DNA of 64,000 bases from Patescibacteria group bacterium (GTDB lineage: Bacteria > Patescibacteriota > Minisyncoccia > Minisyncoccales > JAHCRE01), in contig JAHCRF010000002.1 in the NCBI GenBank assembly GCA_020148055.1, positions 28,138 to 92,137 on the forward strand, given 5' to 3'. The position numbers were made by a program, and so were the translations under genes. This document shows positions 1,066-60,596 of the stretch, piece by piece. The notes under the pieces were generated by a model. It was not told where the DNA came from. It was given only the letters and a program-made list of their open reading frames with translations, and made no database searches. Within the stretch, counting starts at the first letter, position 1. The number at the start of each line of letters is the position of its first letter.

Positions 1066-1416
1066 TTATTTTACTAATTCTATTATGGCCATTTTAGCCC
1101 CATTCGATTTCCTTGACCCGAGCTTAATAATCCTGGTATAGCCACCGCTTCTTTCTTTGTATCTTAGTCCAATTTCATCAATCAACTTTTTAACTATTTG
1201 AGGAGAAAAAAATTTTGCTAATAAACGCCTTGAAGCTAAATTTCCCCTTTTTGCTCGGGTGATAAATTTTTCTACAAAAGGACGTAATTCTTTTGCCTTA
1301 GCCTCAGTTGTCCTTATCTTTTCATTTAAAATCAGGGCGGAAGCCAACGATTTTAAAAGAGCTTTGCGTTGATTTAGTTTACGGGAAAGTTTTCTACCAC
1401 GTTTACGTTTTCTCAT
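1066..1416 (-). CDS. rplQ: 50S ribosomal protein L17
   Basis: RKLSRKLNQRKALLKSLASALILNEKIRTTEAKAKELRPFVEKFIT...GGYTRIIKLGSRKSNGAKMAIIELV; directly after rpoA. Confidence 0.95.
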   Translation of the reverse strand: MRKRKRGRKLSRKLNQRKALLKSLASALILNEKIRTTEAKAKELRPFVEKFITRAKRGNLASRRLLAKFFSPQIVKKLIDEIGLRYKERSGGYTRIIKLGSRKSNGAKMAIIELVK

Positions 1417-1423
1417 ATGATTC

Positions 1424-2341
1424 TTACTTTAATTCCAATTTTAGTTTCTTTAATGCTCTTTTAATCTCCTTTACTCCCGCCTGTCCCATCCCCTCTAATT
1501 TCAATAGGCTCTTTTCGCTTTTCCTTAAGATTCCAGCAACAGTTTTAATATTATTTTTTAGTAAAGCATTTAGAGTTCGAGTAGAAATCTTTAAATCCTC
1601 AACCCCAATTTTATTAAATTCTTCTTCAACTTTCTCTTTTTTAACTGGTATTTCCTTGGGTTTATATTTCTCGCCCAAGAAAGCGAAATGTTGAGTCAAA
1701 ATTTCTAAAGCTTTGAAGAATGCTTCCTCAGGAGTAATTGTTCCATCGGTTTCTATTTTCAGGATTAATCGGTCAAAATCAGTTCTTTCTCCCACTCTCA
1801 TATTTTCCACCCGACAGGCTACTTTTTTTACCGGAGTAAAGATGGCGTCTAAAGCAATTACTCCTACTTCCAATTTCCCTCTTTTCCTTCTTTCAACTGG
1901 AAGATAACCTATTCCCTTTTCAATTTGAATTTCCATTTCAAGCTCAGCTTTTCTATTAGTTAAAGTAGCAATAGGGGCATTTTTGTTTATCAATTCAGCT
2001 TGGGAAGGCAATTTGAAATCGGCTCCTTTGACTTGTTTTTCACCTTTAATTTTAAGGACTGCTTTTTGGGGCTCATCGGTATAAATCTTAAATCTCAATT
2101 GCTTCAAGTTTAGAAGAACTGAAATTACATCCTCCATCACCCCTGGAAGAGTTGAAAATTCGTGTTGAGCACCCTTAATTTTCACTTGAGTAACTGCTGC
2201 TCCTGGCAAAGAAGAAAGTAAAACCCTCCGGAGAGAATTGCCAATAGTTACTCCATAACCAGGATATAGAGCCTCAATCTTAAAGGAAGCTCGGTTTCCT
2301 TTTTTTTCAATAATTTTAGGTGGAAGAGGAAGAGGAATCAT
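1424..2341 (-). CDS. rpoA: DNA-directed RNA polymerase subunit alpha
   Basis: N-terminal domain FKIEALYPGYGVTIGNSLRRVLLSSLPGAAVT and C-terminal helix-hairpin-helix LKISTRTLNALLKNNIKTVAGIL; rpsD-rpoA-rplQ order. Confidence 0.95.
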   Translation of the reverse strand: MIPLPLPPKIIEKKGNRASFKIEALYPGYGVTIGNSLRRVLLSSLPGAAVTQVKIKGAQHEFSTLPGVMEDVISVLLNLKQLRFKIYTDEPQKAVLKIKGEKQVKGADFKLPSQAELINKNAPIATLTNRKAELEMEIQIEKGIGYLPVERRKRGKLEVGVIALDAIFTPVKKVACRVENMRVGERTDFDRLILKIETDGTITPEEAFFKALEILTQHFAFLGEKYKPKEIPVKKEKVEEEFNKIGVEDLKISTRTLNALLKNNIKTVAGILRKSEKSLLKLEGMGQAGVKEIKRALKKLKLELK

Positions 2342-2355
2342 ATGTTCATTAAATG

Positions 2356-2985
2356 TTATCGTGAGTAAAATTCAAAAATGGTTGGGATTTCAACTGGGGG
2401 CACAGCTTCTTCTAAGGAAGGTACAGCTGTAACCTTTCCTGTTAAGGTTTTAATATTTAAGGAAAGCCAAGAAGGAGGCTGATATTTTTTCAACTTGGCT
2501 CGAAGATTTTTAAATGTAAGTCTCTTTCGAGAAGTTTGGCGAAGAGTAATCTTATCTCCTTTTTTTAGTTGGAAACTGGGAATATTAACCGGTTTCCCAT
2601 TAATTAAAAAATGACTATGACTAACTAATTGGCGAGCCTGAGCCCGAGAGGAAGCGAATCCCAATCGAAAAATTACATTATCTAAACGACTTTCTAATTT
2701 CTGAATCAGGAATGTTGCAGCGTCTTCAATTTTCCCTCGAGATTCTAAGGTTTCCTTTATATATCTCTTAAATTGACGCTCCTCTAAATTATACCAATTT
2801 TTTAATCTTTGTTTCTCCCTTAATTCCTTTCCATATTCAGAAAGAGCCCTTAATCTTCTTTTTCTTTTCTGTCCCGGCGGATAAGGCCTTCTTACCATTG
2901 GACATTTTGGAGACAAACATTTTTCCCCCTTTAAAAAAAGCTTTACTCCTAATCTTCGACAGATTCTACATTTTGAGTCTTGCAT
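2356..2985 (-). CDS. rpsD: 30S ribosomal protein S4
   Basis: CRICRRLGVKLFLKGEKC zinc-type N-terminus, S4 RNA-binding domain RLDNVIFRLGFASSRAQARQLVSHSHFLINGKPVNIPS. Confidence 0.95.
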   Translation of the reverse strand: MQDSKCRICRRLGVKLFLKGEKCLSPKCPMVRRPYPPGQKRKRRLRALSEYGKELREKQRLKNWYNLEERQFKRYIKETLESRGKIEDAATFLIQKLESRLDNVIFRLGFASSRAQARQLVSHSHFLINGKPVNIPSFQLKKGDKITLRQTSRKRLTFKNLRAKLKKYQPPSWLSLNIKTLTGKVTAVPSLEEAVPPVEIPTIFEFYSR

Positions 2986-2986
2986 A

Positions 2987-3439
2987 TTATACTCGTCTTA
3001 CTTTTGGCGGTCGACAGCCATTGTGAGGAATAGGGGTAACATCTTGAATTGAAATAATATCCAAACCTCGATTAGCCAAAGATCTAATGGCTGATTCTCG
3101 ACCAGAACCTATACCCTTTACTAAAATTTCGACCCTATCTATCCCTAATTTTTTGGCTCGCTGAACCAAAACCTCAGCTACTTTAGAAGCAGCAAAAGGA
3201 GTGCCTTTCTTTGTCCCCTTAAATCCGACATTGCCGGCACTAGCCCAGGTAAGGGTATTCCCCTGGGAATCAGTCAAGGTCATTATTGTATTATTATAAG
3301 AAGAAAAAATAAAAACCTTCCCTTCTTTAATTTTCTGAGGAACCTTAATTTTAATCTCTTTTTTTACGGCTGCTTCTACTCTTTCTCTTTCTTTCAAAAG
3401 TTCTTCTTCAGTTTTTTTAATAATTCTTTTTTTACCCAC
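2987..3439 (-). CDS. rpsK: 30S ribosomal protein S11 (GTG start, N-terminal extension)
   Basis: [42 protein letters not shown]...[13 protein letters not shown]. Confidence 0.95.
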
Positions 3440-3440
3440 G

Positions 3441-3522
3441 ATTTAAGTGAACCAAGTTAATTAAGAGATTAAGTTAATTTTTAAATTACCTTTCCTTAAC
3501 TTAATCTTAATCGCTTAATCTT
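3441..3522. repeat. period-7 repeat hairpin filling the rpsM-rpsK spacer
   Basis: Left arm gatttaa/gtgaacc/aagttaa/ttaagag/attaagt. Right arm ccttaac/ttaatct/taatcgc/ttaatct. The arms share a 12-nt exact complement (agattaagttaa). Confidence 0.6.
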
Positions 3523-3917: not shown

Positions 3918-4024
3918 TCGTAGAATTCAGGATTTAGAATTTAGGGTTCAGGTTTTTAGTTTGTAATAATTTTTTACTAAGCTTCAGAACCTAGGCGCTA
4001 TATTCTAAATTCTATATCCTAAAA
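3918..4024. repeat. period-7 repeat hairpin filling the rpmJ-rpsM spacer
   Basis: 3921-3962 reads tagaatt/caggatt/tagaatt/tagggtt/caggttt/ttagttt. 3981-4024 carries the imperfect complement (..tattcta/aattcta/tatccta..). Confidence 0.55.
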
Positions 4025-8599: not shown

Positions 8600-8628
8600 A
8601 ATCTAATTTATATTTTACAATTTTAAAG

Positions 8629-8778
8629 GCCACTTTAAAAGTGGCACTTTTAGAGAGCTCGAGAACCTTTTATTAAAAGGTTCTCGAATATATGCCTTCG
8701 GCTACGGGTATAAGGTCCCGAGCCGAAGGTAACCTCTAATTTTTGGCGGCTGGACACCTTTTTCTGAAAAAGGGGTCC
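8629..8778. other. four consecutive stable hairpins in the ykuK-like / alaS spacer (possible leader, regulatory element or small RNA)
   Basis: H1 8629-8645 GCCACTTT/AAAGTGGC. H2 8660-8686 CGAGAACCTTTT-att-AAAAGGTTCTCG. H3 8695-8729 CCTTCGGCT..CGGG..CCCG..AGCCGAAGG. H4 8752-8778 GGACACCTTTTT-ctg-AAAAAGGGGTCC. Confidence 0.4.
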
Positions 8779-8785
8779 ACTTTTG

Positions 8786-9352: not shown

Positions 9353-10114
9353 TCAAGATTTAACTCTACTGACACTTCTGAGGATTTTAATAAACTCTCG
9401 TGGATTCAAAGAAGCCCCTCCAACTAGAAGTCCCTGGAAATTAGCTTCCCTTACATAATCTGTAGCATTTTTAGAATTCACGCTACCCCCATAAATTATC
9501 CTGAGATTTTCAGCGATACCACGTGAATATTTTTTGACTATCATTTTTCTAATGAGCAAACCCATTTTTTGAGCTTCTTCCACATTGCAAGGTTTTCCAG
9601 TTCCAATCGCCCAGACAGGTTCATAGGCGATTGTAATTTTTTTGATTTCCTTTTTTGAAATTTTTGGGAGGCCTTTTTCAATCTGAGATTTTAAAATACT
9701 CTGGGTCTGACCTTTTTCTCGTTCCTCTTTGGTCTCCCCAATACAAAAAATTGGATTTAATTTAACTGATATCGCAGCTTTTATTTTTCTATTTATTATT
9801 TCATCGGTCTCACCAAAATATCTTCTCCTCTCAGAATGACCTAAGATTGCATATTTGCAGCCAAGATTTAAGAGCTGTTTTGGCGAAACTTCACCAGTAA
9901 ATGGTCCTGCTTCCTTCCAAAAACAGTTCTGTCCGCCTAGTTTGATACTTGATACTTGATACTGGACACTTGATAAATAGGTAAATGGCGGGCAAATTAC
10001 TACCTCAACATTTCTTATTTTTTTTATTCCTCTTTTGGCCGAGTTAAAAAGCCGCTTAGCTTCAGCTGAACTTTGAGGATTCATCTTCCAGTTTGCGACA
10101 ATTAATGATTTCAT
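9353..10114 (-). CDS. tpiA: triosephosphate isomerase
   Basis: IVANWKMN, AILGHSERR, IAYEPVWAIGTGK, IIYGGSV. Confidence 0.92.
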   Translation of the reverse strand: MKSLIVANWKMNPQSSAEAKRLFNSAKRGIKKIRNVEVVICPPFTYLSSVQYQVSSIKLGGQNCFWKEAGPFTGEVSPKQLLNLGCKYAILGHSERRRYFGETDEIINRKIKAAISVKLNPIFCIGETKEEREKGQTQSILKSQIEKGLPKISKKEIKKITIAYEPVWAIGTGKPCNVEEAQKMGLLIRKMIVKKYSRGIAENLRIIYGGSVNSKNATDYVREANFQGLLVGGASLNPREFIKILRSVSRVKS

Positions 10115-10172: not shown

Positions 10173-11237
10173 TTATTGTTTTCTCAAATATGCGGCAGCC
10201 CTTTCTGGTTCAATCGTTGAAATCTCCATTCTTGTTCCAATTTCAAATCCTGCCCAAACTGATGTTTTTGGTAAAATCGTCCAATGCCAGTGATAATGAT
10301 CATATTTTTTTCTATCACAAGGGGCGGTATGTAAATAAAAATTGTAGGCCGGATCATTTAGGGCTTTGTAAAGTTTATTCAAAGCCGTCTTAAAAGCCTC
10401 AGCTAAAGTCCTTTTTTCTTTTTCAGTTATTTTTTCAAAATAGGCTGAGTGTCTTTTTGGAGAGATTATAATTTGGAAGGCAGCCTTTGAGGCAAAAGGG
10501 CACAAAACTAAAAAATCTCTATTTTCAAAAACAATTCTTTTCTTGCTTTTTCTCTCCCAATTATTCATTTGGCAATAGATGCATTTTTTATGGGCTTTGA
10601 AGTATCTCCTCGAATTTGAAAGAGCTCTTCTCAAATCAACATCGATGAGGGGGGTGGTAATAATTTGAGAATGGGGATGAAAGATTGAGGCCCCTGCTTC
10701 AGTTCCATGATTGTGAAATATAGAAACATAATTTACAAATGGTTTTTTCATCAATTTTAAATATCTTTCATGATAGGCATCAATCACCTCTTTTACCTCC
10801 TCTATCTTAAATTGGCCTATTGACCTTTTGTGATCTTTAGTAATCGCTACTTCATGAAAACCCACTGCATTCATTGTTTGATAAAGATTACCTTCAATCC
10901 TTTTGTTTAATTGAAGGTGAGGAAAAAAGGCGGGGAATTTATTTGGAACAACAATTGTTGTCCAATTCTTAGGAATTTTTTGGCCGGGGATTTTTTTATT
11001 CTGAGCAAAAATAAGTAGAGGATTTTTTAGCTCTTCAATCTGACAAAAAGGGCAGAGTTTCTTAGGGGGTACTTTTTTTAATCTTCTTTCTTTTCTGAAA
11101 GTTTCGGGTCTTCTGGCTCTGCCAGTTGCAATGACAACCCAATCCTTTGAAACCAAATCAAATCGAAGCTCGGATGGAAATTTTATTCGACCAGATGCCT
11201 TCTGACCGTAGGTTATTTTTTTAGGCTGTTTAGTCAT
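10173..11237 (-). CDS. galT: galactose-1-phosphate uridylyltransferase-like (GalT branch of HIT superfamily)
   Basis: CPFCQ zinc motif, VVPNKFPAF, FHNHGTEAGASIFHPHSQIITTP (HxHxQ active site). Confidence 0.7.
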   Translation of the reverse strand: MTKQPKKITYGQKASGRIKFPSELRFDLVSKDWVVIATGRARRPETFRKERRLKKVPPKKLCPFCQIEELKNPLLIFAQNKKIPGQKIPKNWTTIVVPNKFPAFFPHLQLNKRIEGNLYQTMNAVGFHEVAITKDHKRSIGQFKIEEVKEVIDAYHERYLKLMKKPFVNYVSIFHNHGTEAGASIFHPHSQIITTPLIDVDLRRALSNSRRYFKAHKKCIYCQMNNWERKSKKRIVFENRDFLVLCPFASKAAFQIIISPKRHSAYFEKITEKEKRTLAEAFKTALNKLYKALNDPAYNFYLHTAPCDRKKYDHYHWHWTILPKTSVWAGFEIGTRMEISTIEPERAAAYLRKQ

Positions 11238-11949
11238 AAAGCTTTTTTATTAAGTTTAATCTTATTTTAAATACATCGATTAACATCTCTACCATTGATT
11301 TGAATTTTACTTTGCTTTCTGGGTCATTTATCCAGACTACTGGAATTTCCTTGAATCTATATCCAAGTTTCTTTGCTAGAATTAGAACCTCAACATCAAA
11401 GGCAAAACGATTAATCACTGTTTTTGGAAAAATATCCTCTGCAGCTTTTTTAATAAAGCCCTTAAAACCGCATTGAGTGTCCCAGATTCCCCACAGACCA
11501 GAAATTACTTGAACAATTAGATTAAAAATATCACCAAGTCTTCTTCTAAACCAGGACTGAGGAACGGCAATTACAGCTCCTTTTATATCTCTTGAACCAA
11601 TGATAATATCGAAACCTACTTCAAATTCCGGCCACATTTTCTCAACCTGATCAATCGAGGTTGAATTATCAGCATCAGTAAAAACTCGATATTCTCCCGA
11701 AGCTCTTAACATCCCTTGACGAACTCCAAAACCTTTTCCCCTCTTCTTTTCAAATTCAACTAATTTCAGGTTTTTAATTTCATTCATCAAATTTTTAACA
11801 ATCTCAACTGTTCTATCAGTCGAACCATCAGAAACAACAATAATTTCAGATTCATAATTCTGCTTCCTTAAATATTCATCAATCTCTCTCAAAGTCTTTG
11901 GTAATCTCTCTTCTTCATTATAAGCAGGAATAATAACAGAAAGATGCAT
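11230..11949 (-). CDS. family 2 glycosyltransferase (dolichyl/polyprenyl-phosphate glycosyltransferase-like)
   Basis: LSVIIPAYNEEERLPKTL, VVSDGSTDRT, FTDADNS (DxD). Confidence 0.8.
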   Translation of the reverse strand: MHLSVIIPAYNEEERLPKTLREIDEYLRKQNYESEIIVVSDGSTDRTVEIVKNLMNEIKNLKLVEFEKKRGKGFGVRQGMLRASGEYRVFTDADNSTSIDQVEKMWPEFEVGFDIIIGSRDIKGAVIAVPQSWFRRRLGDIFNLIVQVISGLWGIWDTQCGFKGFIKKAAEDIFPKTVINRFAFDVEVLILAKKLGYRFKEIPVVWINDPESKVKFKSMVEMLIDVFKIRLNLIKKLYD

Positions 11950-13608: not shown

Positions 13609-14892
13609 CTAAATAGTTTCATATTCCCTCATCTGAAGCTGAGCATTTATCTGACGTATAGTTTCCAAAACTACTGAAACCACAATTAACAAAGAGGTTC
13701 CTCCGATTAAAAATCGAAAAACCATTACCTTAGTTATTCCACCAATAATTGAGGGCATAATTGCGATTACTCCTAAGAATAAAGCTCCGATAAGTAAAAC
13801 CCGGTTTAGAATATAAGATAAATAATTGGCTGTTGAAGTTCCTGGTCTTATTCCTGGAACAAATCCTCCCGTTTTTTGGAGATTTTCAGAAATAGCTTTG
13901 GGATCAAAGGTTACGGCGGTATAAAAATAAACAAAGATAACAACTAATAAAAAGTATAAAATTCCATAAACCCAAGGGTTTTGAAGAGAATTGCTTATGC
14001 TCTGGGCAATATTGCCAATAGTACCACCAAAACCTACTAAAAAATTAGCAATCATTCCAGGAAAAGTTAAAATAGATAGGGCAAAAATTATTGGCATCAC
14101 TCCAGCTGGATTAACATTCAAAGGTAAGAAGGTCGAAACTCCCCCATACACTTTCGTTCCTCGAACTCTTTTAGCATAAGAAACCGGAATATTTCGTCTA
14201 GCCTCATTGATTAAAACGACTCCGGTAATAATCAATAAAGCCATGCTAAAAAAGAGTAAATAGCCTGAGATTTTTAAAGGACTCGTCTGAAGATCAAAAT
14301 AAACCTGACGAACACTCACCGGAACAGAGGAAACTATACCAGCGAAAATCAAAAGAGAAACACCATCGCCAATTCCTTTTTCAGAAATTAATTCCCCAAG
14401 CCACATTAAAAATAAGGCTCCAGCTGTAATCGTCAAAATTGAAGTGAAAAGCAAGATAGGAGAAAGAGGCCTAATTACTCCTTGGCGTTGAAATAAAGCC
14501 AGCATTGCATATCCCTGAAGCATTGCCAGAGGAACGGTTAGGATTCTTCCATATCGATTAAATTTCTGACGTCCCGCCTCTCCTTCTTCTCGATAAAGTC
14601 GCTCCAGTTGAGGAAAAATCATTGTTAAAAGTTGCAAAATAATGACAGCGGTAATATAAGGTCCCAATCCTAACATAATAATCGAAACTTTATCCAGAGA
14701 TCCACCAGTAAAAATATTTAAAAGGCCGAACATCTGAAATTGCTCAAAAAAAACTTTTAAGTCCTCGGCACTAATGCCGGGAATAGGGACATTAGCCATT
14801 AGCCGGAAAATAGCCAAAATTCCCAAAACAAAAAGAATTCTGTTTCTTAAATCTCTAATCTTAAAAATCTGAATAATTTTTTGAAGCCACAT
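13609..14892 (-). CDS. secY: preprotein translocase subunit SecY
   Basis: 427 aa polytopic; GLGPYITAVIILQLL, WLGELISEKGIGDGVSLLIFAGI. Confidence 0.95.
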   Translation of the reverse strand: MWLQKIIQIFKIRDLRNRILFVLGILAIFRLMANVPIPGISAEDLKVFFEQFQMFGLLNIFTGGSLDKVSIIMLGLGPYITAVIILQLLTMIFPQLERLYREEGEAGRQKFNRYGRILTVPLAMLQGYAMLALFQRQGVIRPLSPILLFTSILTITAGALFLMWLGELISEKGIGDGVSLLIFAGIVSSVPVSVRQVYFDLQTSPLKISGYLLFFSMALLIITGVVLINEARRNIPVSYAKRVRGTKVYGGVSTFLPLNVNPAGVMPIIFALSILTFPGMIANFLVGFGGTIGNIAQSISNSLQNPWVYGILYFLLVVIFVYFYTAVTFDPKAISENLQKTGGFVPGIRPGTSTANYLSYILNRVLLIGALFLGVIAIMPSIIGGITKVMVFRFLIGGTSLLIVVSVVLETIRQINAQLQMREYETI

Positions 14893-15334: not shown

Positions 15335-15404
15335 GTGAAACATATGACCTGAAACATGAAACATTTTTTAACAATAGGTTTTAAGTTTCGAGTTTCAAGT
15401 TTCA
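15335..15404. repeat. period-7 repeat hairpin occupying the rpsE-rplO spacer (the usual rpmD position)
   Basis: gtgaaac/atatgac/ctgaaac/atgaaac versus gtttcga/gtttcaa/gtttcat (tgaaacatgaaac vs tgaaacttgaaac, 12 of 13). Confidence 0.6.
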
Positions 15405-15869
15405 TGACTTTTGTTTCAGTTCCTTTAGTGCTTTAATTGTTGCTCTGGCGTTATTGATTTTGTTTTTCGTGGCTCCTAAGACTTTTGAAGAAATATTTTT
15501 TATCCCAGCTAAAGTGCAAATAACTCTGACCGTACCGCCTGCCACCAGTCCTCTTCCTTTTCTTTGGGGTTTAAGTAAAACCTTGGCTGCCCCAAATTTT
15601 GCGAAAACTTCGTGCGCAATTGTATCATTGATAATTGGTACTTCAATCAAATTTTTCTTAGCTGATCTAGTCGCTTTTTCTACTGCCTGGGCAACATCTA
15701 AACCCTTAGCCACTCCCACCCCAATTTTTCCATTCTTATTGCCAATAATCATCAATGCCCGAAATCGAAAATGTTTACCTCCTGCGGTAACTCGAGTAAC
15801 TCGAGCTAAGTCAAGTAATTTAGACTCAAATTCCTCTTTTGGTTTCTCATTAATGGTTTTTTTGAACAT
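15402..15869 (-). CDS. rpsE: 30S ribosomal protein S5
   Basis: LLDLARVTRVTAGGKHFRFRALMIIGNKNGKIGVGVAKG...GRGLVAGGTVR. Confidence 0.95.
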   Translation of the reverse strand: MFKKTINEKPKEEFESKLLDLARVTRVTAGGKHFRFRALMIIGNKNGKIGVGVAKGLDVAQAVEKATRSAKKNLIEVPIINDTIAHEVFAKFGAAKVLLKPQRKGRGLVAGGTVRVICTLAGIKNISSKVLGATKNKINNARATIKALKELKQKS

Positions 15870-16285: not shown

Positions 16286-16828
16286 CTAGCCAGCGGTTAC
16301 TACTTTCTTTCCTGGCTTTCTTTTAATTACTTCCCCAAGATATTTAATTCCTTTTCCCTTATAGGGTTCAGGGGGACGAACTTTTCTTATTTTTGCAGTA
16401 ATCTGGCCAACTAATTCTTTATTAATTCCCGAAACTGTAATAACATTTTTATCAACCGAGAATTTTATCCCTTTGGGAGTTTTTATTTTTACCGGATGAG
16501 TAAAACCAACTCGCAAAACTAATTCCTCACCTTCAAGGACGGCTTTAAACCCTAAACCCTCGATTACCAATTTTTTTTCGTACCCTGTGATTACCCCTTT
16601 AACGTTATTGGCCAAAAGGGATCGAGTCAAACCCCAAAAAGCCCTGGTCTTCTTAGTTTCAATTTGAGGAGAAACAAAAATCTTTCCCTCCTTTATTTCA
16701 ACTTTAATTTCCGGTCGAATTTTCAGGCATTGCTCCCCTTTAGGACCTTTAATAGTCACCAGATTTCCACTAATTTTTACTTCTACCTCTTTCGGTATTT
16801 CAATTGGTTTTTTACCTATTCTAGACAT
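16286..16828 (-). CDS. rplF: 50S ribosomal protein L6
   Basis: [31 protein letters not shown]...[11 protein letters not shown]. Confidence 0.95.
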
Positions 16829-16854
16829 ATGAATTTAGAATTATGAATTATGAA

Positions 16855-16988
16855 GCGAGGGAAACAATTTTTATGGACCATCCGCAGCGAGTTGGCATGG
16901 TCTCGCCGAAGGCGAGCAACTCGCGAGGAAAGGAGCTTGCTTCTCGCTGGGAAGCAGAGCGTGTCCTAAAAATTGTGTTCCCGAGCGG
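16855..16988 (-). repeat. ~135-nt structured intergenic element, copy A (rpsH-rplF spacer)
   Basis: Shares conserved blocks and hairpin architecture with 23615-23753 and 28704-28838; see findings. Strand assigned from the host operon only. Confidence 0.75.
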
Positions 16989-16989
16989 C

Positions 16990-18162: not shown

Positions 18163-18165
18163 TGT

Positions 18166-18255
18166 CTTTTAAGTATTTAGTATTAAGTAGTTAATATTTA
18201 GGATTTAGATTTTTAAAAACTATACTCGATACTTAATACTTCATACTATATACTA
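18166..18255. repeat. period-7 repeat hairpin filling the rplX-rplE spacer
   Basis: 18171-18212 aagtatt/tagtatt/aagtagt/taatatt/taggatt/tagattt. 18221-18255 tatactc/gatactt/aatactt/catacta/tatacta. The arms are complementary over ~20 nt (agtattaagta core). Confidence 0.6.
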
Positions 18256-18603
18256 AATCTTTTGTCCGCACTTCTTGCATATTCTAACTTTTGATTTTTG
18301 ATCTTTGCTGGAGCCTTTTGCTCCTCCCCGTAGGGTCCTTTTTGATATAACTTTATATCCTACCTTAGTTGCTTTTTTGCATTTCGGACAAATAAGCTTG
18401 ACATTGGAAATATGAATGGGAGCAGGCAATTCAACGATTTGACCCTTTTCTCCCTCCCTTTTCGGTCTGATATGCTTTTTTCTTAGATTAACTCCTTCAA
18501 TTAAAAGTCTTTGCTCTTTTGGAAAGGCCTTTAAAACTTTACCTTTTTTGCCACGATACTTTCCAGAGATTATAAGAACCTGGTCACCTTTTTTTATTTT
18601 CAT
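18253..18603 (-). CDS. rplX: 50S ribosomal protein L24 with CxxC..CxxC C-terminal extension
   Basis: MKIKKGDQVLIISGKYRGKKGKVLK (KOW) ... IHISNVKLICPKCKKATKVGYKV...RICKKCGQKI. Confidence 0.93.
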   Translation of the reverse strand: MKIKKGDQVLIISGKYRGKKGKVLKAFPKEQRLLIEGVNLRKKHIRPKREGEKGQIVELPAPIHISNVKLICPKCKKATKVGYKVISKRTLRGGAKGSSKDQKSKVRICKKCGQKI

Positions 18604-18605
18604 AA

Positions 18606-18977
18606 TTAAACTAATTCTTCAGCTAATCCCGCTATTTTGTCAAATCCTTTCTCTTTTAATTCCCTGGGTACCGGCCCGAGGACTCTTCCTCCTTTTGGAT
18701 CTTTTGTTTTCCCTTCTAAAATTACAATAGCATTATCGTCAAATCGAATATAGCTCCTATCTGACCTCCGATAAGATTTTTTTTGACGAACTATTACTGC
18801 TCTTACAATATCGTGTTTTTTTACCAGCCTTCTCGGTTCAGCCTCTTTTACAGTACCAACAATAATATCGCCGATCCGGGCATATCTTCTACGAGTTCCG
18901 CCTAAAATTCTAAAACATTGGACGATTTTAGCACCGGTATTGTCAGCTACTTTTAACATTGTTCTTGGTTGTATCAT
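18606..18977 (-). CDS. rplN: 50S ribosomal protein L14
   Basis: MIQPRTMLKVADNTGAKIVQCFRILGG. Confidence 0.95.
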   Translation of the reverse strand: MIQPRTMLKVADNTGAKIVQCFRILGGTRRRYARIGDIIVGTVKEAEPRRLVKKHDIVRAVIVRQKKSYRRSDRSYIRFDDNAIVILEGKTKDPKGGRVLGPVPRELKEKGFDKIAGLAEELV

Positions 18978-18982
18978 AAAAA

Positions 18983-19079
18983 CTGAGAATTACGAATTAG
19001 GAATAAAGAATAAGGATATATCGTTCTCATAATTCATAATTCATTATTCATTATTCATTATTCATTATTCATTATTCTA
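18983..19079. repeat. period-7 repeat hairpin filling the rpsQ-rplN spacer
   Basis: ctgagaa/ttacgaa/ttaggaa/taaagaa/taaggat versus ttctcat/aattcat/aattcat followed by tattcat x4 and tattcta. Confidence 0.6.
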
Positions 19080-19308
19080 ATTTTCTTATTACTCTCCACT
19101 TTTTCTCTTTACTGATGGGTCTAGATTCCTCAATTATCACTTTGTCCCCAACTTTATATTTACCACTTTCATCATGAGCTTTATATCTTTTATGGGCTTT
19201 ATATCTCCTCTTATATTTTGGATGTTCTTTAATTCGTTCAACTTCAACCACCACCGTTTTTTCCATTTTATCTGATACTACTATTCCTTTTAATCTTTTT
19301 TTAGGCAT
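19072..19308 (-). CDS. rpsQ: 30S ribosomal protein S17
   Basis: [43 protein letters not shown]. Confidence 0.95.
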
Positions 19309-19314
19309 ACTCCA

Positions 19315-19390
19315 GTGAACAAAAAACAGTAAACAGAGAACAATAACTTTATTAAGAACTAATTTGTTTATCGTTCTTTGTTCTTTGTTT
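19315..19390. repeat. period-7 repeat hairpin across the rpmC-rpsQ junction
   Basis: gtgaaca/aaaaaca/gtaaaca/gagaaca versus tttgttt/atcgttc/tttgttc/tttgttt. The right arm encodes the last residues of L29 (..[10 protein letters not shown]). Confidence 0.55.
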
Positions 19391-19564
19391 ATTTAGTAGA
19401 GTTAATATTCTGGCAATATCTTTTTTTAATTCTTTGATTTCCCGAACGTTTTTAATCTTTCCGGAAGCCAAATTAAAACAAATATCTCCTAATTTTTCTC
19501 GTTTATCCCGAAGAATCTTTTGAAGTTTAGCTTTTGGTTTTTTGCGTAATTCTTTAGCTTTCAT
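19352..19564 (-). CDS. rpmC: 50S ribosomal protein L29
   Basis: [25 protein letters not shown]...; position between rplP and rpsQ. Confidence 0.9.
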
Positions 19565-21526: not shown

Positions 21527-21596
21527 TAAGCTAACTAAGCGACTAAGCGGTTAAGTTAATTAAGTTAAAAAAGTCTCTTAATCACTTAATCTCTTA
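21527..21596. repeat. period-7 repeat hairpin filling the rplB-rpsS spacer
   Basis: taagcta/actaagc/gactaag/cggttaa/gttaatt/aagttaa versus tctctta/atcactt/aatctct (ttaagttaattaag vs ttaagtgattaag). Confidence 0.5.
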
Positions 21597-23560: not shown

Positions 23561-23614
23561 AATTTAATTTGTTATCGGGCGGACGCTAAATGTCCGTTTT
23601 TTATTTCTCCTTAA

Positions 23615-23753
23615 GCGAGGGAAGTAATTTTTAGGAGCATCCGCAGGCAAATTTGCTTGGTGTTTCGACGAAGTCGAAACAAATTTGCCGAGGACCTGAG
23701 TGAGCTCATCGCTGGAATGAGCGAGAGTATCCTAAAAATTAGCTTCCTGAGCG
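23615..23753 (-). repeat. ~135-nt structured intergenic element, copy B (rplC-rplD spacer; overlaps the rplC 3' end)
   Basis: Same conserved blocks as copies A and C. The inner helices have different sequence but keep pairing (GGCAAATTTG/CAAATTTGCC, TTTCGAC-gaa-GTCGAAA, GCTCAT-cgctgga-ATGAGC). Confidence 0.75.
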
Positions 23754-24341: not shown

Positions 24342-24513
24342 GCGAAAAACGAATCTAGTACGAATCTACGAATAGGAAATAAAAATGTCGGGGTAACCCG
24401 ACATTCTCAGGTTATTTCCCTAGTTAATATTATCAGTTTGTAAATGATTTGAAAAGAAAAATCATAATTATAATAAAAATATTCGTTTATTCGTAAAAAA
24501 TTCGCTATTCGTT
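24342..24513. repeat. composite spacer (rpsJ-rplC): period-7 arms flanking an AT-rich core and a GC hairpin
   Basis: Left arm 24342-24375 gcgaaaaacgaatctagtacgaatctacgaatagg. Right arm 24481-24513 attcgtttattcgtaaaaaattcgctattcgtt (complementary acgaat/attcgt words). Confidence 0.5.
24375..24404 (-). terminator. intrinsic terminator-like hairpin between rpsJ and rplC
   Basis: Minus strand AUGUCGGG-uuac-CCCGACAU (8 bp) followed directly by UUUUUAUUU. Confidence 0.5.
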
Positions 24514-24885: not shown

Positions 24886-24959
24886 GAATAATGAATTATG
24901 AATCACGAATCACGAGAAAAAATATTCATTCTTAATTCATAATTCTTGATTCGTAATTC
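24886..24959. repeat. period-7 repeat hairpin filling the tuf-rpsJ spacer
   Basis: gaataat/gaattat/gaatcac/gaatcac versus attcatt/cttaatt/cataatt/cttgatt/cgtaatt (GAATTATGAATCACGAATCA vs GAATTACGAATCAAGAATTA, 17 of 20). Confidence 0.6.
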
Positions 24960-24962
24960 TTT

Positions 24963-26162
24963 TTATTTAACTATCTTGGTCACCACTCCTGCCCCAACCG
25001 TTTTTCCTCCTTCCCTAATGGCAAATCTCTGTTTTTCTTCTAGGGCAATTGGAGCAATTAGTTTAATTTTCAAATTAACCGTATCACCAGGCATAACCAT
25101 TTCAGTACCCTCTGCCAATGTTACATCACCTGTTACATCAGTAGTCCTAAAATAAAACTGAGGCTTGTAACCGGAAAAGAAAGGAGTGTGACGACCGCCT
25201 TCTTCTTTAGTTAAAACATAAATCTCGCCTTCAAATTCTGTATGGGGAGTAATTGAACCTGGTTTAGCTAGTACCTGACCCCTCTCTATTTCCTCTTTTT
25301 TAAGACCTCTAAGGAGTATTCCCACATTATCTCCAGCTCTTCCTTCATCAAGAATTTTATTAAACATCTCAATACTGACCGCCACCGTCTTTTTGGTTGG
25401 TCGAAAACCAACTAATTCAACCTCATCGTTTGGTTTAATTATTCCTCTCTCAATTCTTCCAGTAGGTACGGTACCTCTTCCAGCAATTGAGAAGACATCT
25501 TCAATTGCCATCAAAAATGGTTTATCTGTTTCTCGAGTAGGTGTAGGAATATGGTCATCTACAGCCTTAATTAAGTCTAAAATTGGTTTAGCTGCCTCGT
25601 CATCTGGAGATTTTACCTCCAAAGCTTTTAAGGCTGACCCTCGAATTATCGGGATTTTACCTCCAGGATAATTATATTTTTTGAGAAGTTCTCGAATCTC
25701 AGACTCAACTAAATCAATAATCTCTGGATCATCCACAGCATCGCATTTGTTCAAAAAAACTACTAAGGCTGGTAAGCCAACCTGACGAGCGAGTAAAATA
25801 TGTTCTCTGGTCTGAGGCATTGGACCGTCGGGAGCCGAAACAACTAAAACTGCTCCATCCATTTGAGCCGCTCCAGTTATCATATTCTTGATATAGTCGG
25901 CATGGCCAGGACAATCGATGTGGGCGTAGTGGCGCTTTTCAGTCTCATATTCAAGATGGGAAATTGAAATAGTTAAGCCACGGGCTTTTTCCTCGGGAGC
26001 AGCATCAATTTGATCTACTGATTTTTTGACTATCTTCGGATTTTTAAAATGTAAAACGTGTAAGATAGCCGATACTAAAGTAGTTTTTCCATGGTCAACA
26101 TGACCAATGGTACCGATGTTAACATGGGGTTTTGCCCTAACAAATTTTTCTTTTTCTGCCAT
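24963..26162 (-). CDS. tuf: elongation factor Tu
   Basis: [28 protein letters not shown]; 399 aa. Confidence 0.97.
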
Positions 26163-26167
26163 AAGTT

Positions 26168-26266
26168 TAGAATTATGAATAATGAATGAAGAATAATGAA
26201 TCGTTAAACCTATAATAACCAGAGGCGATGTATTCTTAATTCATAATTCTCAATCCATAATTCAAG
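26168..26266. repeat. period-7 repeat hairpin immediately upstream of tuf
   Basis: tagaattatgaataatgaatgaagaataatgaatcg versus cgatgtattcttaattcataattctcaatccataattcaag; 12-nt exact complement agaattatgaat. Confidence 0.6.
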
Positions 26267-26285
26267 TTTAAATAATTATATTTTT

Positions 26286-26364
26286 ATTCTATTAAAATTG
26301 GAAAGATAGTCAACTTTTAAGAGAATACTTTAATTATTTTAAGATTTTATTCTTCAAAAGTCAA
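26286..26364 (-). promoter_or_regulatory. two candidate sigma70-type promoters for tuf (and the downstream r-protein genes)
   Basis: Minus strand TTGACT (26364-26359) -17 nt- TAAAAT (26341-26336), and TTGACT (26313-26308) -16 nt- TAGAAT (26291-26286). Confidence 0.35.
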
Positions 26365-26410
26365 CAACTCAAATTTATTCTAACATTTATTTTAAAAAAA
26401 GAAAAGAGAT

Positions 26411-27619
26411 CTAAGGTAGAAAGATTCTAAATATCTTTTTTAATCGAGAGGTGATTTTTTTCCCAAAGGCAGGAAAAGTTCTTTCAGTCTCAAGATCGGT
26501 TCCTAAAAGAACTAAACCACAAACAGTTGATAGTTCTGGATCTTCTAAAGGAGAAGAAAATCCCTGAGGAGTTCCGATTCGACAGGGCAACCTTAGTTCT
26601 TTTTTAGCTAAATCTTTGATTTTTGGCAACTTTGCTCCCCCACCAGTTAAAACTACACCTCCGGGAAGTAAAGCTCGACGGGAAATTTTCTTTAATTCTC
26701 TATTAATTTCTCCAAAAATCTCGGAAACTCTAGCTTCAATAATTCGACTCAACATCTTTTGAGAAAAAATCAAAGTCTCTCCAGAAACGGTCTCAACTCT
26801 TTTCTTCTTATCAGCTCCTTTAAAAATACAAACGCCTGACTCTAATTTTACTTTTTCAGCCGTATCAATATCACATCTAAGACCAATGGCAATATCACTG
26901 GTAATGTGGGTGGAACCAATTGGTAAAATAGTCGTCTGGATTAAACCACCCTCTTCAAATACAGCTAACCCAGTAGTCCCCGCCCCAATATCCAAAAGAG
27001 CCACCCCCAGTTCTTTTTCTCGAGGAGTTAAAACTGCTCTTGAACTAGCTAAGGGAGTTAAAATTAAATCATCAATCTGAAAGCCGGCATCTAAAACAGC
27101 CTGAGTCAAATTTTTTAAATAAGGAGAAAAACCTCCGAGAACCAAAACTTCCACCTCCAACCTCACTCCTTTCATTCCTAAAGGTTCTTTTATCCTTTTT
27201 TCACCATCAACAGTAAATTCTTTTGGGAAAACCGATAAAATTTCTTTATTTGAAGGAAGAGAAAAGGTCTGGGCAGCCTGAAGCACCCTCTCAATATCCT
27301 CCTGAGAGATCTTCTGATCAGCTCTAGAAACTGAGATTAGGCCATGGGAAGTGGTAGAAAAAATGTGAGCTCCCCCAACATTAGTAAAAACTGATTTGAT
27401 TTTTTTATTAGAAATTTCTTGGACTTTATCAAGAGAAGATTTGATGATATCAGCCACCTCTTCAGTATTAATCACTACACCTTTTCTCACACCCGAGGAA
27501 ATCTCTTTACTTTGACCTAAAACCTCAAGATCCAATTCACTTGATTTTTTTTGGCAAAGTAAAGTTTTTATAGTTCTTGTTCCAATATCTAAACCGGTTA
27601 TGATATGAGTTTTAGCCAT
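26411..27619 (-). CDS. ftsA: cell division protein FtsA
   Basis: ITGLDIGTRTIKTLL, ALLDIGAGTTGLAVF, VVLTGGGAKLPKIKDLAKKEL. Confidence 0.85.
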   Translation of the reverse strand: MAKTHIITGLDIGTRTIKTLLCQKKSSELDLEVLGQSKEISSGVRKGVVINTEEVADIIKSSLDKVQEISNKKIKSVFTNVGGAHIFSTTSHGLISVSRADQKISQEDIERVLQAAQTFSLPSNKEILSVFPKEFTVDGEKRIKEPLGMKGVRLEVEVLVLGGFSPYLKNLTQAVLDAGFQIDDLILTPLASSRAVLTPREKELGVALLDIGAGTTGLAVFEEGGLIQTTILPIGSTHITSDIAIGLRCDIDTAEKVKLESGVCIFKGADKKKRVETVSGETLIFSQKMLSRIIEARVSEIFGEINRELKKISRRALLPGGVVLTGGGAKLPKIKDLAKKELRLPCRIGTPQGFSSPLEDPELSTVCGLVLLGTDLETERTFPAFGKKITSRLKKIFRIFLP

Positions 27620-28692: not shown

Positions 28693-28703
28693 TTACCGTT
28701 AGA

Positions 28704-28838
28704 GCAAAGGAAATAATTTTTAGGAGCATCTGGAGCCGAGCGGGCACGGTGTCGCCGAAGGCGACGAGCGAGGCGAGGAAAGGAACGAGCGAGCGCGCTG
28801 GGCGAGTGAGCGTATCCTAAAAATTAGCTTCCCGAGCA
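28704..28838 (-). repeat. ~135-nt structured intergenic element, copy C (rpsU / yqeY-like spacer)
   Basis: gcaaaggaaataatttttaggagcatctggag...gtcgccgaaggcgac...cgaggaaaggaac...gcgctgggcga...gcgtatcctaaaaattagcttcccgagca; fills 135 of the 147 spacer nt. Confidence 0.75.
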
Positions 28839-28839
28839 C

Positions 28840-29415: not shown

Positions 29416-29506
29416 AATGTCAAATGTCAAAGCTCAAATGTCAAAAATCGTTTCGGATTTTGGATTTTGACATTAATTTGAAATTTGGATTTTGTCATTT
29501 GGATTT
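29416..29506. repeat. period-7 repeat hairpin filling the hisS / HIT spacer
   Basis: aatgtca/aatgtca/aagctca/aatgtca/aaaatcg versus tttcgga/ttttgga/ttttgac/attaatt/tgaaatt/tggattt/tgtcatt/tggattt. Confidence 0.55.
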
Positions 29507-31416: not shown

Positions 31417-31992
31417 ATGATACTTATTATCGGTCTTGGCAATCCCGGGGAAGAATTTAAGAAAACCCGACATAATCTTGGTTTTCGAGTTGTTAATCAA
31501 TTCGTGAAAGAAAAGAAATTCTTGAAATTTAAATTTTCAAAAAAATTCAATTCTTTAATTTCTGAAGGATTTTTAGATAAGAAAAAAACAGCTTTAGCTA
31601 AACCTCAAACTTTTATGAATGAATCAGGAAAAGCAGTAAAAAAATTGTTTACTGTTTACTGTTCACTATTGACTGATTTGTGGGTGATTCATGATGATGT
31701 TGACTTGCTTTTAGGAAAAATAAAAATTGTCAAAAATCGTGGAGCAGCTGGCCACAAAGGAGTTAAATCGATAATTAACGAACTAGGGACAAAAAACTTT
31801 GTGAGATTTAGAGTTGGAATTAAACCACAGAGAACAGAGAACAGAAAACAGAAAACAGAAAAGTTTGTTCTTCAAAAATTTACAAAAGAAGAAGAAAAAA
31901 TTATAAAGAAAGTTATTAAAAAAGGCTGTCTGGCAATTAAGATAGCGATAACCGAAGGAATTGAAAAAGCAATGAATCGGTTTAATAAATAA
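31417..31992 (+). CDS. pth: peptidyl-tRNA hydrolase
   Basis: LIIGLGNPGEEFKKTRHNLGF...PQTFMNESG...VIHDDVDL...GAAGHKGVKS. Confidence 0.93.
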   Translation: MILIIGLGNPGEEFKKTRHNLGFRVVNQFVKEKKFLKFKFSKKFNSLISEGFLDKKKTALAKPQTFMNESGKAVKKLFTVYCSLLTDLWVIHDDVDLLLGKIKIVKNRGAAGHKGVKSIINELGTKNFVRFRVGIKPQRTENRKQKTEKFVLQKFTKEEEKIIKKVIKKGCLAIKIAITEGIEKAMNRFNK

Positions 31993-32060
31993 AAAATCGA
32001 GTAAGATTTTCTTTTACTCGACAGAAAATGGGGAAAGAGAACAAATAAAACTTTATATCC

Positions 32061-32305
32061 AATCCCGCCCTCCGGTCTATCTGCGAGCCCCGTAATGAAA
32101 ATACATTAGTATTTTACCACGAGCTTCACCCTTTAGTAAAAATTTACTACGGGCGAGCGCTATAATTAAAGGAAGATTACTTCCTAACCGTAGCTAGGGC
32201 TCGATAAGGTTTTCAGGAGGGATAACCCTATTCTTTTCATTTATTAAAACTTCAAAGAAATTTTAATAAGCGGAGCCACTCGCAGATAGGCTGGAAGGTG
32301 GAATC
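32061..32305. ncRNA. candidate structured RNA (or MITE-like inverted-repeat element), family unknown
   Basis: 32061-32087 pairs with 32279-32305 (22 Watson-Crick, 3 G-U on the plus strand, 2 C-A). Internal hairpins include TTATTAAAA-10 nt-TTTTAATAA, GGAAG-atta-CTTCC, AGGG-ataa-CCCT and AAAATAC-atta-GTATTTT. By eye it is G+C-richer than its surroundings. Confidence 0.4.
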
Positions 32306-32382
32306 TTATTCAATTTATATTATAAAAAATAAAAGTTAATTTGTCAAGCCCCCTTCTGCCGGTTTCATTGGTGGGGGTTAAG

Positions 32383-52993: not shown

Positions 52994-53045
52994 AAAAGCC
53001 TGTTTTGTCCCGGCTTTCTTAGAATTTAGCTTACCTTTTTGCAAC

Positions 53046-60526: not shown

Positions 60527-60532
60527 AATCAA

Positions 60533-60561
60533 ACCCTGCTAAAAGGCAGGGTCTTTATTTT
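60533..60561 (+). terminator. intrinsic terminator
   Basis: ACCCTGC-taaaag-GCAGGGT followed by CTTTATTTT. Confidence 0.7.
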
Positions 60562-60596
60562 AAAACACGCTTCTCATTTTCTACTTAGCTTATTTT

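Follow-up and report, generated by a model that had tools for sequence, protein, structure and literature searches.

The window analysed here, a 64-kb stretch of the Patescibacteria contig JAHCRF010000002.1 with 34% G+C, raises the question of why so many gaps between its essential translation genes are filled with imperfect hairpins whose arms consist of tandem heptanucleotides. Such hairpins might serve the mRNA of the operon, arise in place by slippage, or be guests that move between loci. We lean, with reservations, towards the last answer, in which they would be non-autonomous selfish or mobile palindromic repeat elements working like miniature inverted-repeat transposable elements (MITEs) or like REPINs, the doublets of repetitive extragenic palindromic (REP) sequences. 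The source contig (L081) is a groundwater-type metagenome scaffold from ENA (source sample ERZ23498930), and the closest GTDB genomes are Candidatus Nealsonbacteria and other Paceibacteria, with 59-69% identity in ribosomal protein L4. According to Pfam matches, positions 210-31,400 form a minus-strand supercluster of translation genes comprising the S10, spc, and alpha ribosomal-protein operons, L17, L13, and S9, together with hisS, a HIT-family gene, yqeY, ybeY, ftsA, tuf, secY, adk, map, infA, and rpoA. Syntenic relatives used for comparison were L082 and L085 (about 90% protein identity to the window), L087 and L089 (77-78%), and L001 to L004 (59-69%). A Shine-Dalgarno-like motif (GGAG, GAGG, or AGGA at -20 to -4) was found in 2 of the 75 window genes, whose starts are A-rich upstream at -5 to -3 and carry T at -1.

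Anatomy and turnover of the hairpins

Each element is a quasi-palindrome of about 70-100 bp, in which three to six tandem 7-bp units (8-bp in some families) and their reverse complements surround a centre of 10-35 bp. The predicted stems are made of 5-6 bp helices with internal loops of 1-3 nt every 7 nt, and it is the variable position of the unit that stays unpaired. A sequence-only reading of the window had listed fourteen such spacers as period-7 hairpins, and each of these, on its exact coordinates, was compared with 300 dinucleotide-preserving shuffles. The period held for eleven, which have their autocorrelation maximum at lag 7 (identity 0.48-0.72, z 3.3-8.3; the observed value was reached by 0 of 300 shuffles for ten and by 1 of 300 for one), and failed for three, namely 3441-3522 (irregular), 21527-21596 (period 8), and 24342-24513 (a nested composite). 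Folding was confirmed throughout, all fourteen being more stable than their shuffled controls (minimum free energy, MFE, z -2.1 to -8.0; 0-7 of 300 shuffles as stable). Pooled intergenic DNA of the window peaks at lags 7, 14, and 21 (0.347, 0.329, and 0.317 versus about 0.30), coding DNA shows no such peaks, and the period-7 arrays were recovered independently by Tandem Repeats Finder (TRF).

Other parts of that reading stood as well. Most longer spacers of the cluster are indeed hairpins: among spacers measuring 40 nt or more, they account for 13 of 22 within the first 31 kb and for 1 of 15 beyond it in the window (Fisher p = 0.0016). Arms do run into gene ends: the stop codons of S17, L24, and S19 lie within the first unit, and the L29 frame enters an arm by nine codons, so that L29 has 70 amino acids in the window versus 60-64 in relatives. 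The two arms also co-vary, with 55 compensated departures among 428 unit pairs of the GAATTAN family (described below) versus 10.8 +/- 2.9 expected.

Comparison of spacer lengths and spacer sequences across the syntenic clusters shows the hairpins to be inserts into junctions that were ancestrally of the form stop-N(1-4)-start, where inserts of 70-95 nt fill the entire gap. The L4-L23 junction measures 95 nt in the window and 1 nt in both L082 and L085, L2-S19 measures 72 nt and again 1 nt in both, and L24-L5 measures 90 nt and 23 nt in both. Three junctions of 2 nt in the window are longer in one or both relatives: L22-S3 (3 nt in L082, 82 nt in L085), L14-L24 (43 and 81 nt), and L15-secY (81 and 71 nt). 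L082 and L085 share 96-99% nucleotide identity in nearly all compared genes (91% in S8) and therefore represent the same species; they nevertheless differ at seven junctions (S19-L22, L22-S3, L14-L24, S14-S8, L15-secY, S17-L14, and L23-L2), either by presence and absence or by hairpins of different words. At S19-L22, for example, the window has an AAGTATT hairpin, L085 a GGGTTTAG/CTAGACC hairpin, and L082 only 12 nt. At tuf-S10, both relatives carry a GGGTCTAG/CCCTAAA-type hairpin instead of the GAATTAN hairpin of the window, and at hisS-HIT both carry a period-8 hairpin of the TAACAT family. The L14-L24 hairpin of L085 uses the TTAGATG word found in the window at 63381-63464, and the S17-L14 junction of L082 holds a hairpin different from that of the window. 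These junctions show gain, loss, and replacement of elements within one species. Many longer spacers of the relatives are thus hairpins of the same type without being the same sequence at the same place, and the conservation of hairpin potential in orthologous spacers, whose absence the sequence-only reading had named as a refutation, is only partial, as these are often empty (1-4 nt) or hold another hairpin even at 96-99% gene identity.

The "empty" S19-L22 junction of L082 (12364-12375, AAATCCTAAACACTAAATCCT) forms, together with the end of S19, a three-unit CCTAAAN-like array, and may be the remnant of a deleted hairpin and not an ancestral empty site.

The S17-L14 junction adds a case of exchange. 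Starting 7 codons before the end of S17 and reaching through the hairpin to codon 12 of L14, a tract of about 150 nt is 100% identical between the window and L085/L086 except for a 14-nt (2-unit) indel in the perfect GAATAAT run, whereas the flanking coding sequence is only 88-90% identical. L086 comes from the same sample as the window contig. Such a tract in diverged genomes, together with the two-unit indel, indicates recent lateral exchange followed by slippage; elements can pass between co-resident lineages, and slippage alters the unit number of their arms. As this hairpin is seen in three independent assemblies, it is not an assembly artefact. Its unique centre had no match in metagenome contigs, and strain variants with the exact protein, sought via L14, yielded the source contig as the only match.

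In the same spacer, L085 (~14604-14812) and L082 (~14561-14805) have a G+C-rich element, some 200 nt long, that separates the true L14 start from a duplicate of the gene's first 36 nt. The 3' end of this element is complementary to the duplicated fragment, and the pseudo-5' end of L14 in L085 is identical to L14 of the window, not to that of L085 itself, a pattern suggestive of an insertion that brought its target along or duplicated it.

Could the hairpins be selected RNA elements of the polycistronic mRNA, acting as RNase III/E processing sites, as blocks to 3' exonucleases, or as insulators or couplers of translation that set the relative output of neighbouring ribosomal-protein genes, in the manner of the RNase III sites of early T7 mRNA or of intercistronic REP stabilisers? 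Their stability against shuffles in 14 of 14 spacers, the start codon left free by the stems, the co-varying arms, and the enrichment in the translation-gene cluster would suit such roles, as would their location between co-directional genes in the window and, among the metagenome matches listed, a frequency twice as high between convergent (22) as between divergent (11) genes. Regular mismatches at 7-nt intervals would keep the RNA from forming long perfect duplexes, and structure near starts should matter in a genome with almost no Shine-Dalgarno sites. However, the junctions work alike whether they measure 1-4 nt, contain a hairpin, or contain one built from another word, and the same element type occurs within a 16S rRNA gene, as do period-7 arrays within coding sequences. 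The strands tell the same story: among the fourteen window hairpins the sense strand is more stable in seven and the antisense in seven (39 versus 36 G-U pairs), and among 58 co-directional metagenome hairpins the sense strand is more stable in 24 and the antisense in 34 (p = 0.16; 66 versus 78 G-U pairs). At the DNA level the palindromes are symmetric and do not favour the transcribed strand; since both strands fold equally well, nothing points to selection on the RNA strand. One family alignment contained no compensatory pairs, although its cores are invariant, which makes covariation within the family uninformative, and most variant cells among the 428 GAATTAN unit pairs are mismatches and not compensated changes. 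Copying of one arm from the other, when a palindrome forms or is corrected, fits the co-variation of the arms no less well than selection for pairing does. No Rfam family covers the hairpins of the window and 12 metagenome loci at gathering or permissive thresholds. The roles that the sequence-only reading had proposed (RNase III/E processing, stabilisation of the mRNA, insulation of translation, or a protein-binding code) presuppose conserved elements selected as RNA, and the comparison points the opposite way: position is not conserved even within a species, the sense strand has no advantage, and the family alignment lacks compensatory changes; we regard selection for an RNA function as unlikely.

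Two more specific RNA candidates were rejected. Intrinsic terminators, defined by a G+C-rich stem with a U tract after it, are contradicted by a terminator scan, which did not call the heptamer hairpins (canonical terminators lie elsewhere in the window, at 52994-53045 and 60527-60596), and by a T-rich tail in only 21 of 120 hairpins among the matches listed. Conserved cis-regulatory RNAs of ribosomal-protein operons, such as autoregulatory leaders, do not agree with the lack of conserved position and structure, of covariation, and of an Rfam match.

Families between genomes and arrays inside genes

Within L082, a TAACATNN family (TAACAT, period 8) occupies four junctions, and its copies have loops and termini in common, not just the repeated word. 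Intergenic autocorrelation peaks at lag 8 in L082 (0.341) and at lag 7 in L085 (0.378), where period-7 families dominate; that two conspecifics differ in this way implies that the period belongs to the spreading family and not to the replication machinery of the host. Dispersed families are thus shown to exist within one genome.

The same kind of hairpin, partly with the same words (AGTATT, GAATTAN), occurs in distant loci of the candidate phyla radiation (CPR), namely L009 (Campbellbacteria), L019 (UBA2135), and L005. The density of period-7 arrays is 2.4 per kb between genes and 0.22 inside genes in the window, 1.15 and 0.08 in other CPR loci, and 0.10 and 0.02 in non-CPR loci. Word sharing between arrays was scored with rotation, reverse complement, and one mismatch allowed; as many pairwise matches are then expected by chance, we rely only on full-length family similarity, exact words, and pattern-based metagenome matches. 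The GAATTAN superfamily accounts for 14 of the 58 intergenic period-7 arrays of the CPR loci.

L019 also has a family of its own in six intergenic spacers (11210-11306, 14476-14526, 15373-15417, 16741-16826, 18199-18299, and 18834-18932), with CTAGCTTCA.../GCTAACGAAGC... arms and a G+C-rich centre, besides ordinary period-7 hairpins. The pooled intergenic autocorrelation of this whole locus has a secondary peak at lag 9.

A metagenome scan with the pattern GAATTATGAATTA-N(8-38)-TAATTCATAATTC placed the GAATTAN family in at least 120 contigs of 31-63% G+C. Among the matches listed, 116 of 120 hairpins are intergenic, the modal anatomy is 4+4 units around a centre with a median of 16 nt, and the unit consensus is GAATTAT/ATAATTC, with position 7 the most variable. 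One contig with 59% G+C encodes a RecQ that is 99% identical to one of an Anaerolineales metagenome-assembled genome, which places it in Chloroflexota; a termite-gut contig encodes a GH2 enzyme whose closest taxonomically named relatives (at most 76% identity) are Tannerella and other Bacteroidales. The (GAATTAN)n...(NTAATTC)n family is thus shown in contigs whose putative placement covers three phyla, almost always outside genes, and the specificity to ribosomal operons or to the lineage that might have been read from the window does not hold, since the family is found in other genomic contexts and phyla. At sites not picked by the search pattern, including the ftsA-tuf hairpin of the window (26168-26266), the arrangement (GAATNAN)n...(NTNATTC)n was counted 10 times and its mirror 0 times. 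A general tendency of the arm with G to precede its partner is only weak in unbiased sets (28:13, p = 0.03, inflated by non-independence within families), and nothing is claimed beyond GAATTAN. In a viral collection, where matches were few, GAATTAT had 2 loci and a composition-matched control word 1.

In locus L209, one 16S rRNA gene has three insertions (85 nt near model position 80, 115 nt near 188, and 115 nt near 457), each of which carries a GAATTAT/ATAATTC hairpin; the sites are taken to be the tips of the V1, V2, and V3 variable helices. At 1361-3161 and 969-1082, L209 (38% G+C) has this gene of 1,800 nt and, just beside it, a match to a group II intron domain (RF01998).

GAAUUAU arrays (window 18983-19079; L090-L209) can also be read as chains of 5-codon mini open reading frames (AUG AAU UAU GAA UUA UGA) in which stop and AUG overlap as AUGA, and GAAUAAU arrays give UAAUG overlaps. 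Both are classic termination-reinitiation motifs; this may be coincidence.

Period-7 arrays are present inside coding sequences too, namely in pth (two), the triose-phosphate isomerase gene, the gene of leucyl-tRNA synthetase (LeuRS; three), TatD, topA, a thiamine pyrophosphate (TPP)-dependent oxidoreductase subunit (43524-45212), and mfd. In pth, TGTTTAC x4.3 (31646-31675, plus strand) leaves the protein length unchanged and is the approximate inverted complement of ACAGARA x5.1 (31827-31862, plus strand); the two words are mutually inverted and belong to the word family of the window's own L29-S17 hairpin. At the two homologous sites, L085 has CCCTANA, the word of its intergenic hairpins, L087 has CTAAAAN, and L082 has a perfect 10-bp palindrome. 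That each genome has its own word there is explained by no simple insertion model and keeps conversion or slippage in situ in play. Sense TATCAAG x4.9 in triose-phosphate isomerase (9942-9975, minus strand) falls into a surface loop without insertion relative to homologues, and two direct AAATCTC-type arrays in the LeuRS editing domain (49880-50029, minus strand) use a word that recurs in TatD at 54617-54648. Homologue alignments with little or no length change led us to reject discrete +21-nt insertions for such arrays. By a strict test, an inverted partner lies near 0 of 13 and 2 of 29 gene-internal arrays, compared with about half of the intergenic ones.

A sense CGACAAG/CAACAAG word of about four units stands in frame in topA (36461-36488), the TPP-dependent oxidoreductase subunit (44475-44497), and leuS (48718-48747), where it encodes the similar peptides TNDKRQ, TSNKRQ, and TSDKRQ. 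By our estimate, an exact word shared by three unrelated genes is unlikely to be due to chance.

These gene-internal arrays bear on a second alternative, in which slippage by 7-8 nt and intrastrand template switching in quasi-palindromes would make the hairpins arise in place as a local mutational by-product, with no movement between loci. According to PMC4679880 and PMC4692102 (citing Mrazek 2007), heptamer repeats are the most abundant class of long simple repeats in most surveyed bacterial genomes, with polymerase slippage as the proposed cause. The variation of unit number in the perfect part of an array, the unchanged length of genes with internal arrays, the pth sites with a different word in each genome, the many different words, the lack of target duplication, and the DNA-level symmetry of the palindromes all agree with such an origin. 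It is harder to reconcile with conspecifics that should share their replication machinery (96-99% gene identity) but differ in period (7 versus 8), with the common loops and termini of family members at separate junctions, or with identical hairpin tracts in diverged genomes. Among the matches listed, moreover, the exact GAATTAN word, its fixed polarity, and the modal 4+4 anatomy recur in contigs placed in three phyla and at 31-63% G+C, and gene-internal arrays are nearly devoid of the inverted partner that half of the intergenic arrays possess. We therefore doubt that local mutation explains the hairpins. Far less probable still are DNA-level arrays of iterated sites for a DNA- or single-strand-binding protein, such as a cold-shock protein, that would organise the chromosome or modulate transcription: the conserved 5-6 nt core with one variable position, the fixed GAATTAN polarity, the modal four units per arm, and CspB, which according to PMC4679880 binds heptamer repeats with one protein per unit, would fit, but dozens of unrelated words share one architecture, the elements are dispensable at every junction examined, and no candidate protein emerged.

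Sites along the window

The irregular S13-S11 spacer (3441-3522; flanking genes from Pfam) has a GATTAAG/CTTAATC word type in units of 5-9 nt, with its autocorrelation maximum at lag 5 and a secondary peak at 8-9 (lag-7 z = -2.1, MFE z = -3.1). At L36-S13 (3918-4024), next to an L36 frame read straight from the sequence, arms TAGAATT / AATTCTA enclose a nested inner stem (lag-7 identity 0.52, z = 5.6; MFE z = -4.7; also found by TRF). The S5-L15 hairpin (15335-15404), with gene limits from the gene calls on the source contig, has arms TGAAACN / NGTTTCA (0.56, z = 4.7; MFE z = -3.1). Two copies of the AAGTATT / AATACTT family are present: the first at L24-L5 (18166-18255; lag-7 identity 0.67, z = 6.6), with the L24 stop in its first unit, and the second at S19-L22 (21124-21209; 0.68, z = 7.0), assigned by family alignment.

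The highest lag-7 identity (0.72, z = 8.3) belongs to the S17-L14 hairpin of the GAATAAT/GAATTAT family (18983-19079), whose 5' arm on the mRNA side comprises 5+2 units, the S17 stop codon being part of unit 1. The L29-S17 hairpin (19315-19390) belongs to the AACAGNA / GAACAAA family and has one arm within the 3' end of L29, to which it adds about nine codons (0.51, z = 3.7). The period-8 hairpin at L2-S19 (21527-21596) consists of GATTAAGN / CTTAANNG (lag-8 identity 0.55; lag-7 z = -2.6), and the AATGACN hairpin at L4-L23 (22848-22920) has the weakest stem of the set (lag-7 identity 0.48, z = 3.3; MFE z = -2.4). In the S10-L3 composite (24342-24513), outer ACGAATN arms surround an AT-rich stem and a G+C-rich terminator-like stem (24380-24409), with no dominant period (lag-7 z = 0.0) and an MFE z of -8.0.

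The GAATTAN family is represented at tuf-S10 (24886-24959; lag-7 identity 0.70, z = 7.0; MFE z = -4.5), the cleanest case of 6-bp helices with single mismatches between them, and at ftsA-tuf (26168-26266; 0.54, z = 5.3), just upstream of the tuf start codon. The spacer last named also has promoter-like sites at 26275-26364, and within 24963-27619 tuf follows ftsA and not rpsL-rpsG-fusA; L089 has the usual S12-S7-EF-G-EF-Tu order. The hisS-HIT hairpin (29416-29506) combines arms AATGTCA / TGACATT with TTTTGGA units (0.61, z = 5.5). The only listed example beyond the translation-gene cluster stands upstream of a 653-aa gene (61416-63377), at 63381-63464, with arms TTAGATG / CATCTAA (0.62, z = 6.1; MFE z = -5.0). 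A single ATAATTC-type arm of 3.9 units (16828-16854) lies directly upstream of the L6 start and adjoins a G+C-rich element, and it has no partner arm (TRF, sequence, and partner test, 11/14).

Intercistronic inserts of a second family, unrelated to the hairpins, are G+C-rich, measure about 135 nt, and have a closing stem AATTTTTAGGA...TCCTAAAAATT; they are located at 16829-16989, 23561-23738, and 28693-28839 in the window and at 11094-11249 in L082. The junction varies by genome (L3-L4 in the window, L23-L2 in L082), compensatory changes affect 12 of 40 predicted pairs among the four copies, and there is no Rfam match; the family looks like a structured, possibly mobile RNA element. Very strong structure relative to shuffles was also predicted for the non-coding stretches 31993-32340 (MFE z = -9.9) and 8600-8785 (-8.7). 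Neither had an Rfam match at the gathering score, nor did the former at a permissive threshold (E up to 5). The stretch 31993-32340, between pth and mfd, could be a divergent housekeeping RNA.

Proposed mobile palindromes and their place among known repeats

If the hairpins are mobile palindromic elements, they would spread by a mechanism that recognises structure rather than a word. The lack of target duplication would fit a single-strand mechanism like that of HUH transposases, including the REP-associated tyrosine transposases (RAYTs), or templated repair, and homologous recombination with flanking genes would move elements as well. Judging from their position, the elements would be co-transcribed within the operon, and their RNA is predicted to form a stem in which short helices of 5-6 bp are broken at 7-nt intervals. 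This self-folding probably makes an insertion tolerable in a tightly coupled operon without Shine-Dalgarno sites, as it would keep the stop and the next start codon adjacent and hide AUGs in the arms. The heptamer arms would slip and be homogenised between arms, and if the elements influence the stability or processing of the mRNA, this would be incidental.

Several observations weigh against mobility. A Pfam scan of about 70 of the 75 called open reading frames of the window found no mobilising gene (transposase, RAYT, or reverse transcriptase), no insertion sequence was found in the window or the loci examined, and no function encoded by the elements was found. Filled and empty versions of L2-S19, L4-L23, L22-S3, L14-L24, and L15-secY revealed no target-site duplication, and the only visible target motif, "just after a stop codon", is explicable by selection alone. 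The 43 canonical words among 58 arrays are awkward for sequence-specific transposition. Copies in the window are only about 55-72% alike (mean column identity in family alignments), so there is no sign of very recent transposition there, and the cross-phylum placement depends on one protein in each of two contigs. Arrays in pth, triose-phosphate isomerase, LeuRS, and TatD occupy variable loops with little or no length change relative to homologues, so that gene-internal arrays look like the outcome of a mutational or conversion process in situ and not of the insertion of discrete elements. Finally, selection for RNA structure would agree as well with the co-varying arms and with the enrichment among the highly expressed translation genes.

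A broader form of the mobile-element reading, which we put forward only tentatively, would see a cross-phylum class of structure-defined mobile hairpins of about 4+4 heptamers, whose arms are written or mobilised by a word-agnostic, period-setting enzyme and which colonise stop-start junctions and the tips of rRNA helices. Candidate enzymes would be an HUH/RAYT-like single-strand transposase reading hairpin geometry or a reiterative, telomerase-like repair polymerase; the latter, by extending both 3' ends of a break with repeats, would account for the fixed polarity of (GAATTAN)n...(NTAATTC)n.

Among known repeats, REPs stabilise the upstream mRNA, and REPINs are mobilised by RAYT transposases. 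The hairpins resemble them as short extragenic imperfect palindromes, about 70-100 nt when paired, which occur in operons or after genes in multi-copy families, lack target duplications, and would be co-transcribed as hairpins. They differ in their internally periodic arms (tandem 7- or 8-nt units), in the several unrelated words per genome, and in one word family that spans phyla. According to PMC3733652, one end of the REP palindrome carries a conserved GTAG or CGTC tetranucleotide; no such head was seen in the GAATTAT/ATAATTC consensus or the other words, as read from the sequences with no dedicated scan, and no RAYT, a Y1 HUH transposase, is among the scanned reading frames of the window. 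With MITEs (Correia, ERIC, RUP, Nezha) the hairpins have in common a non-autonomous nature, terminal inverted repeats (the arms being reverse complements), filled and empty orthologous sites, intergenic location, the ability to fuse with the ends of reading frames, and stable folds. Unlike MITEs, they show no target-site duplication and no known cognate insertion sequence, are smaller than most, and have tandem arrays as arms in place of unique terminal repeats.

Rickettsia palindromic elements are lineage-restricted sequences of 100-150 bp, tolerated inside genes and RNA genes, and are not heptamer arrays. They and the hairpins are alike as palindromic repeats in unusual places where function is not destroyed; in the window, however, only arms at gene ends add codons (L29, +9 aa), and gene-internal arrays leave length unchanged. 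RNase III sites of phage T7 and other intercistronic processing hairpins are comparable in possible mode of action only, being imperfect stems with internal loops between cistrons, but those sites are positionally conserved and constrained in sequence, whereas the window hairpins are dispensable and polymorphic.

The short tandemly repeated repetitive (STRR) sequences of heterocystous cyanobacteria have the words CCCCAGT, TTGGTCA, and CAACAGT. The sequence-only reading had drawn this parallel, and aptly, as tandem heptanucleotide units are present (TRF; lag-7 z 3.3-8.3 in 11 of 14 spacers). A strong preference for intergenic DNA, frequent positions beside start codons, and differences among close strains are further traits shared with STRRs and other heptanucleotide repeats. 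The three words are absent among the 43 canonical words, and the nearest genomes are Patescibacteria/Nealsonbacteria and not cyanobacterial. Other heptamer repeats described in PMC4679880 and PMC4692102 are TAACTGA in Beggiatoaceae, GGGAATC in Xanthomonas, and GGGGA(C/T)T in Nostoc, with occasional inverted pairs of arrays noted in the last two. Those repeats are mainly direct arrays of one or few words. Here, the default is a paired array that forms a hairpin of about 4+4 units, the words are many, and the sites include essential operons of a CPR bacterium as well as a 16S rRNA gene. TIGR-Tas systems, whose arrays consist of units of about 36 nt with two alternating 8-12 nt repeats and 9-nt spacers beside a tas gene with a Nop domain (PMC12045711), were rejected, as each window element is one hairpin made of 7-nt units, the elements lie dispersed among housekeeping genes, and no Nop-domain protein is encoded in the window. 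Integron attC sites, a candidate in view of their recognition by structure, were rejected too: gene order is conserved and not cassette-like, and most words have no R-box, although no dedicated scan was made.

We found no published description of paired heptamer hairpins in CPR operons, nor of the GAATTAT hairpin, and the sequence strings occurred in none of the papers covered by the literature search. What is unexpected is the within-species turnover in essential operons, the phylum-crossing word family of fixed polarity, and the insertion into a 16S rRNA gene. Structure-based scans of CPR genomes for regulatory RNAs will catch these hairpins as false positives. The presence of the GAATTAN family in relatives of Bacteroidales, some of which are genetically tractable, would make the mechanism and the effect on expression testable. 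If the hairpins are an active class of elements, they would be a simple marker of very recent genome change in unculturable organisms and a signal for strain typing, and would mean that coupled essential operons tolerate self-folding inserts of 70-100 nt. They would also be a possible source of rRNA expansion segments and new protein ends, and the cross-phylum class of mobile hairpins, if true, would bring rRNA expansion segments, new C-termini, and within-species operon polymorphism to CPR, Chloroflexota, and Bacteroidota.

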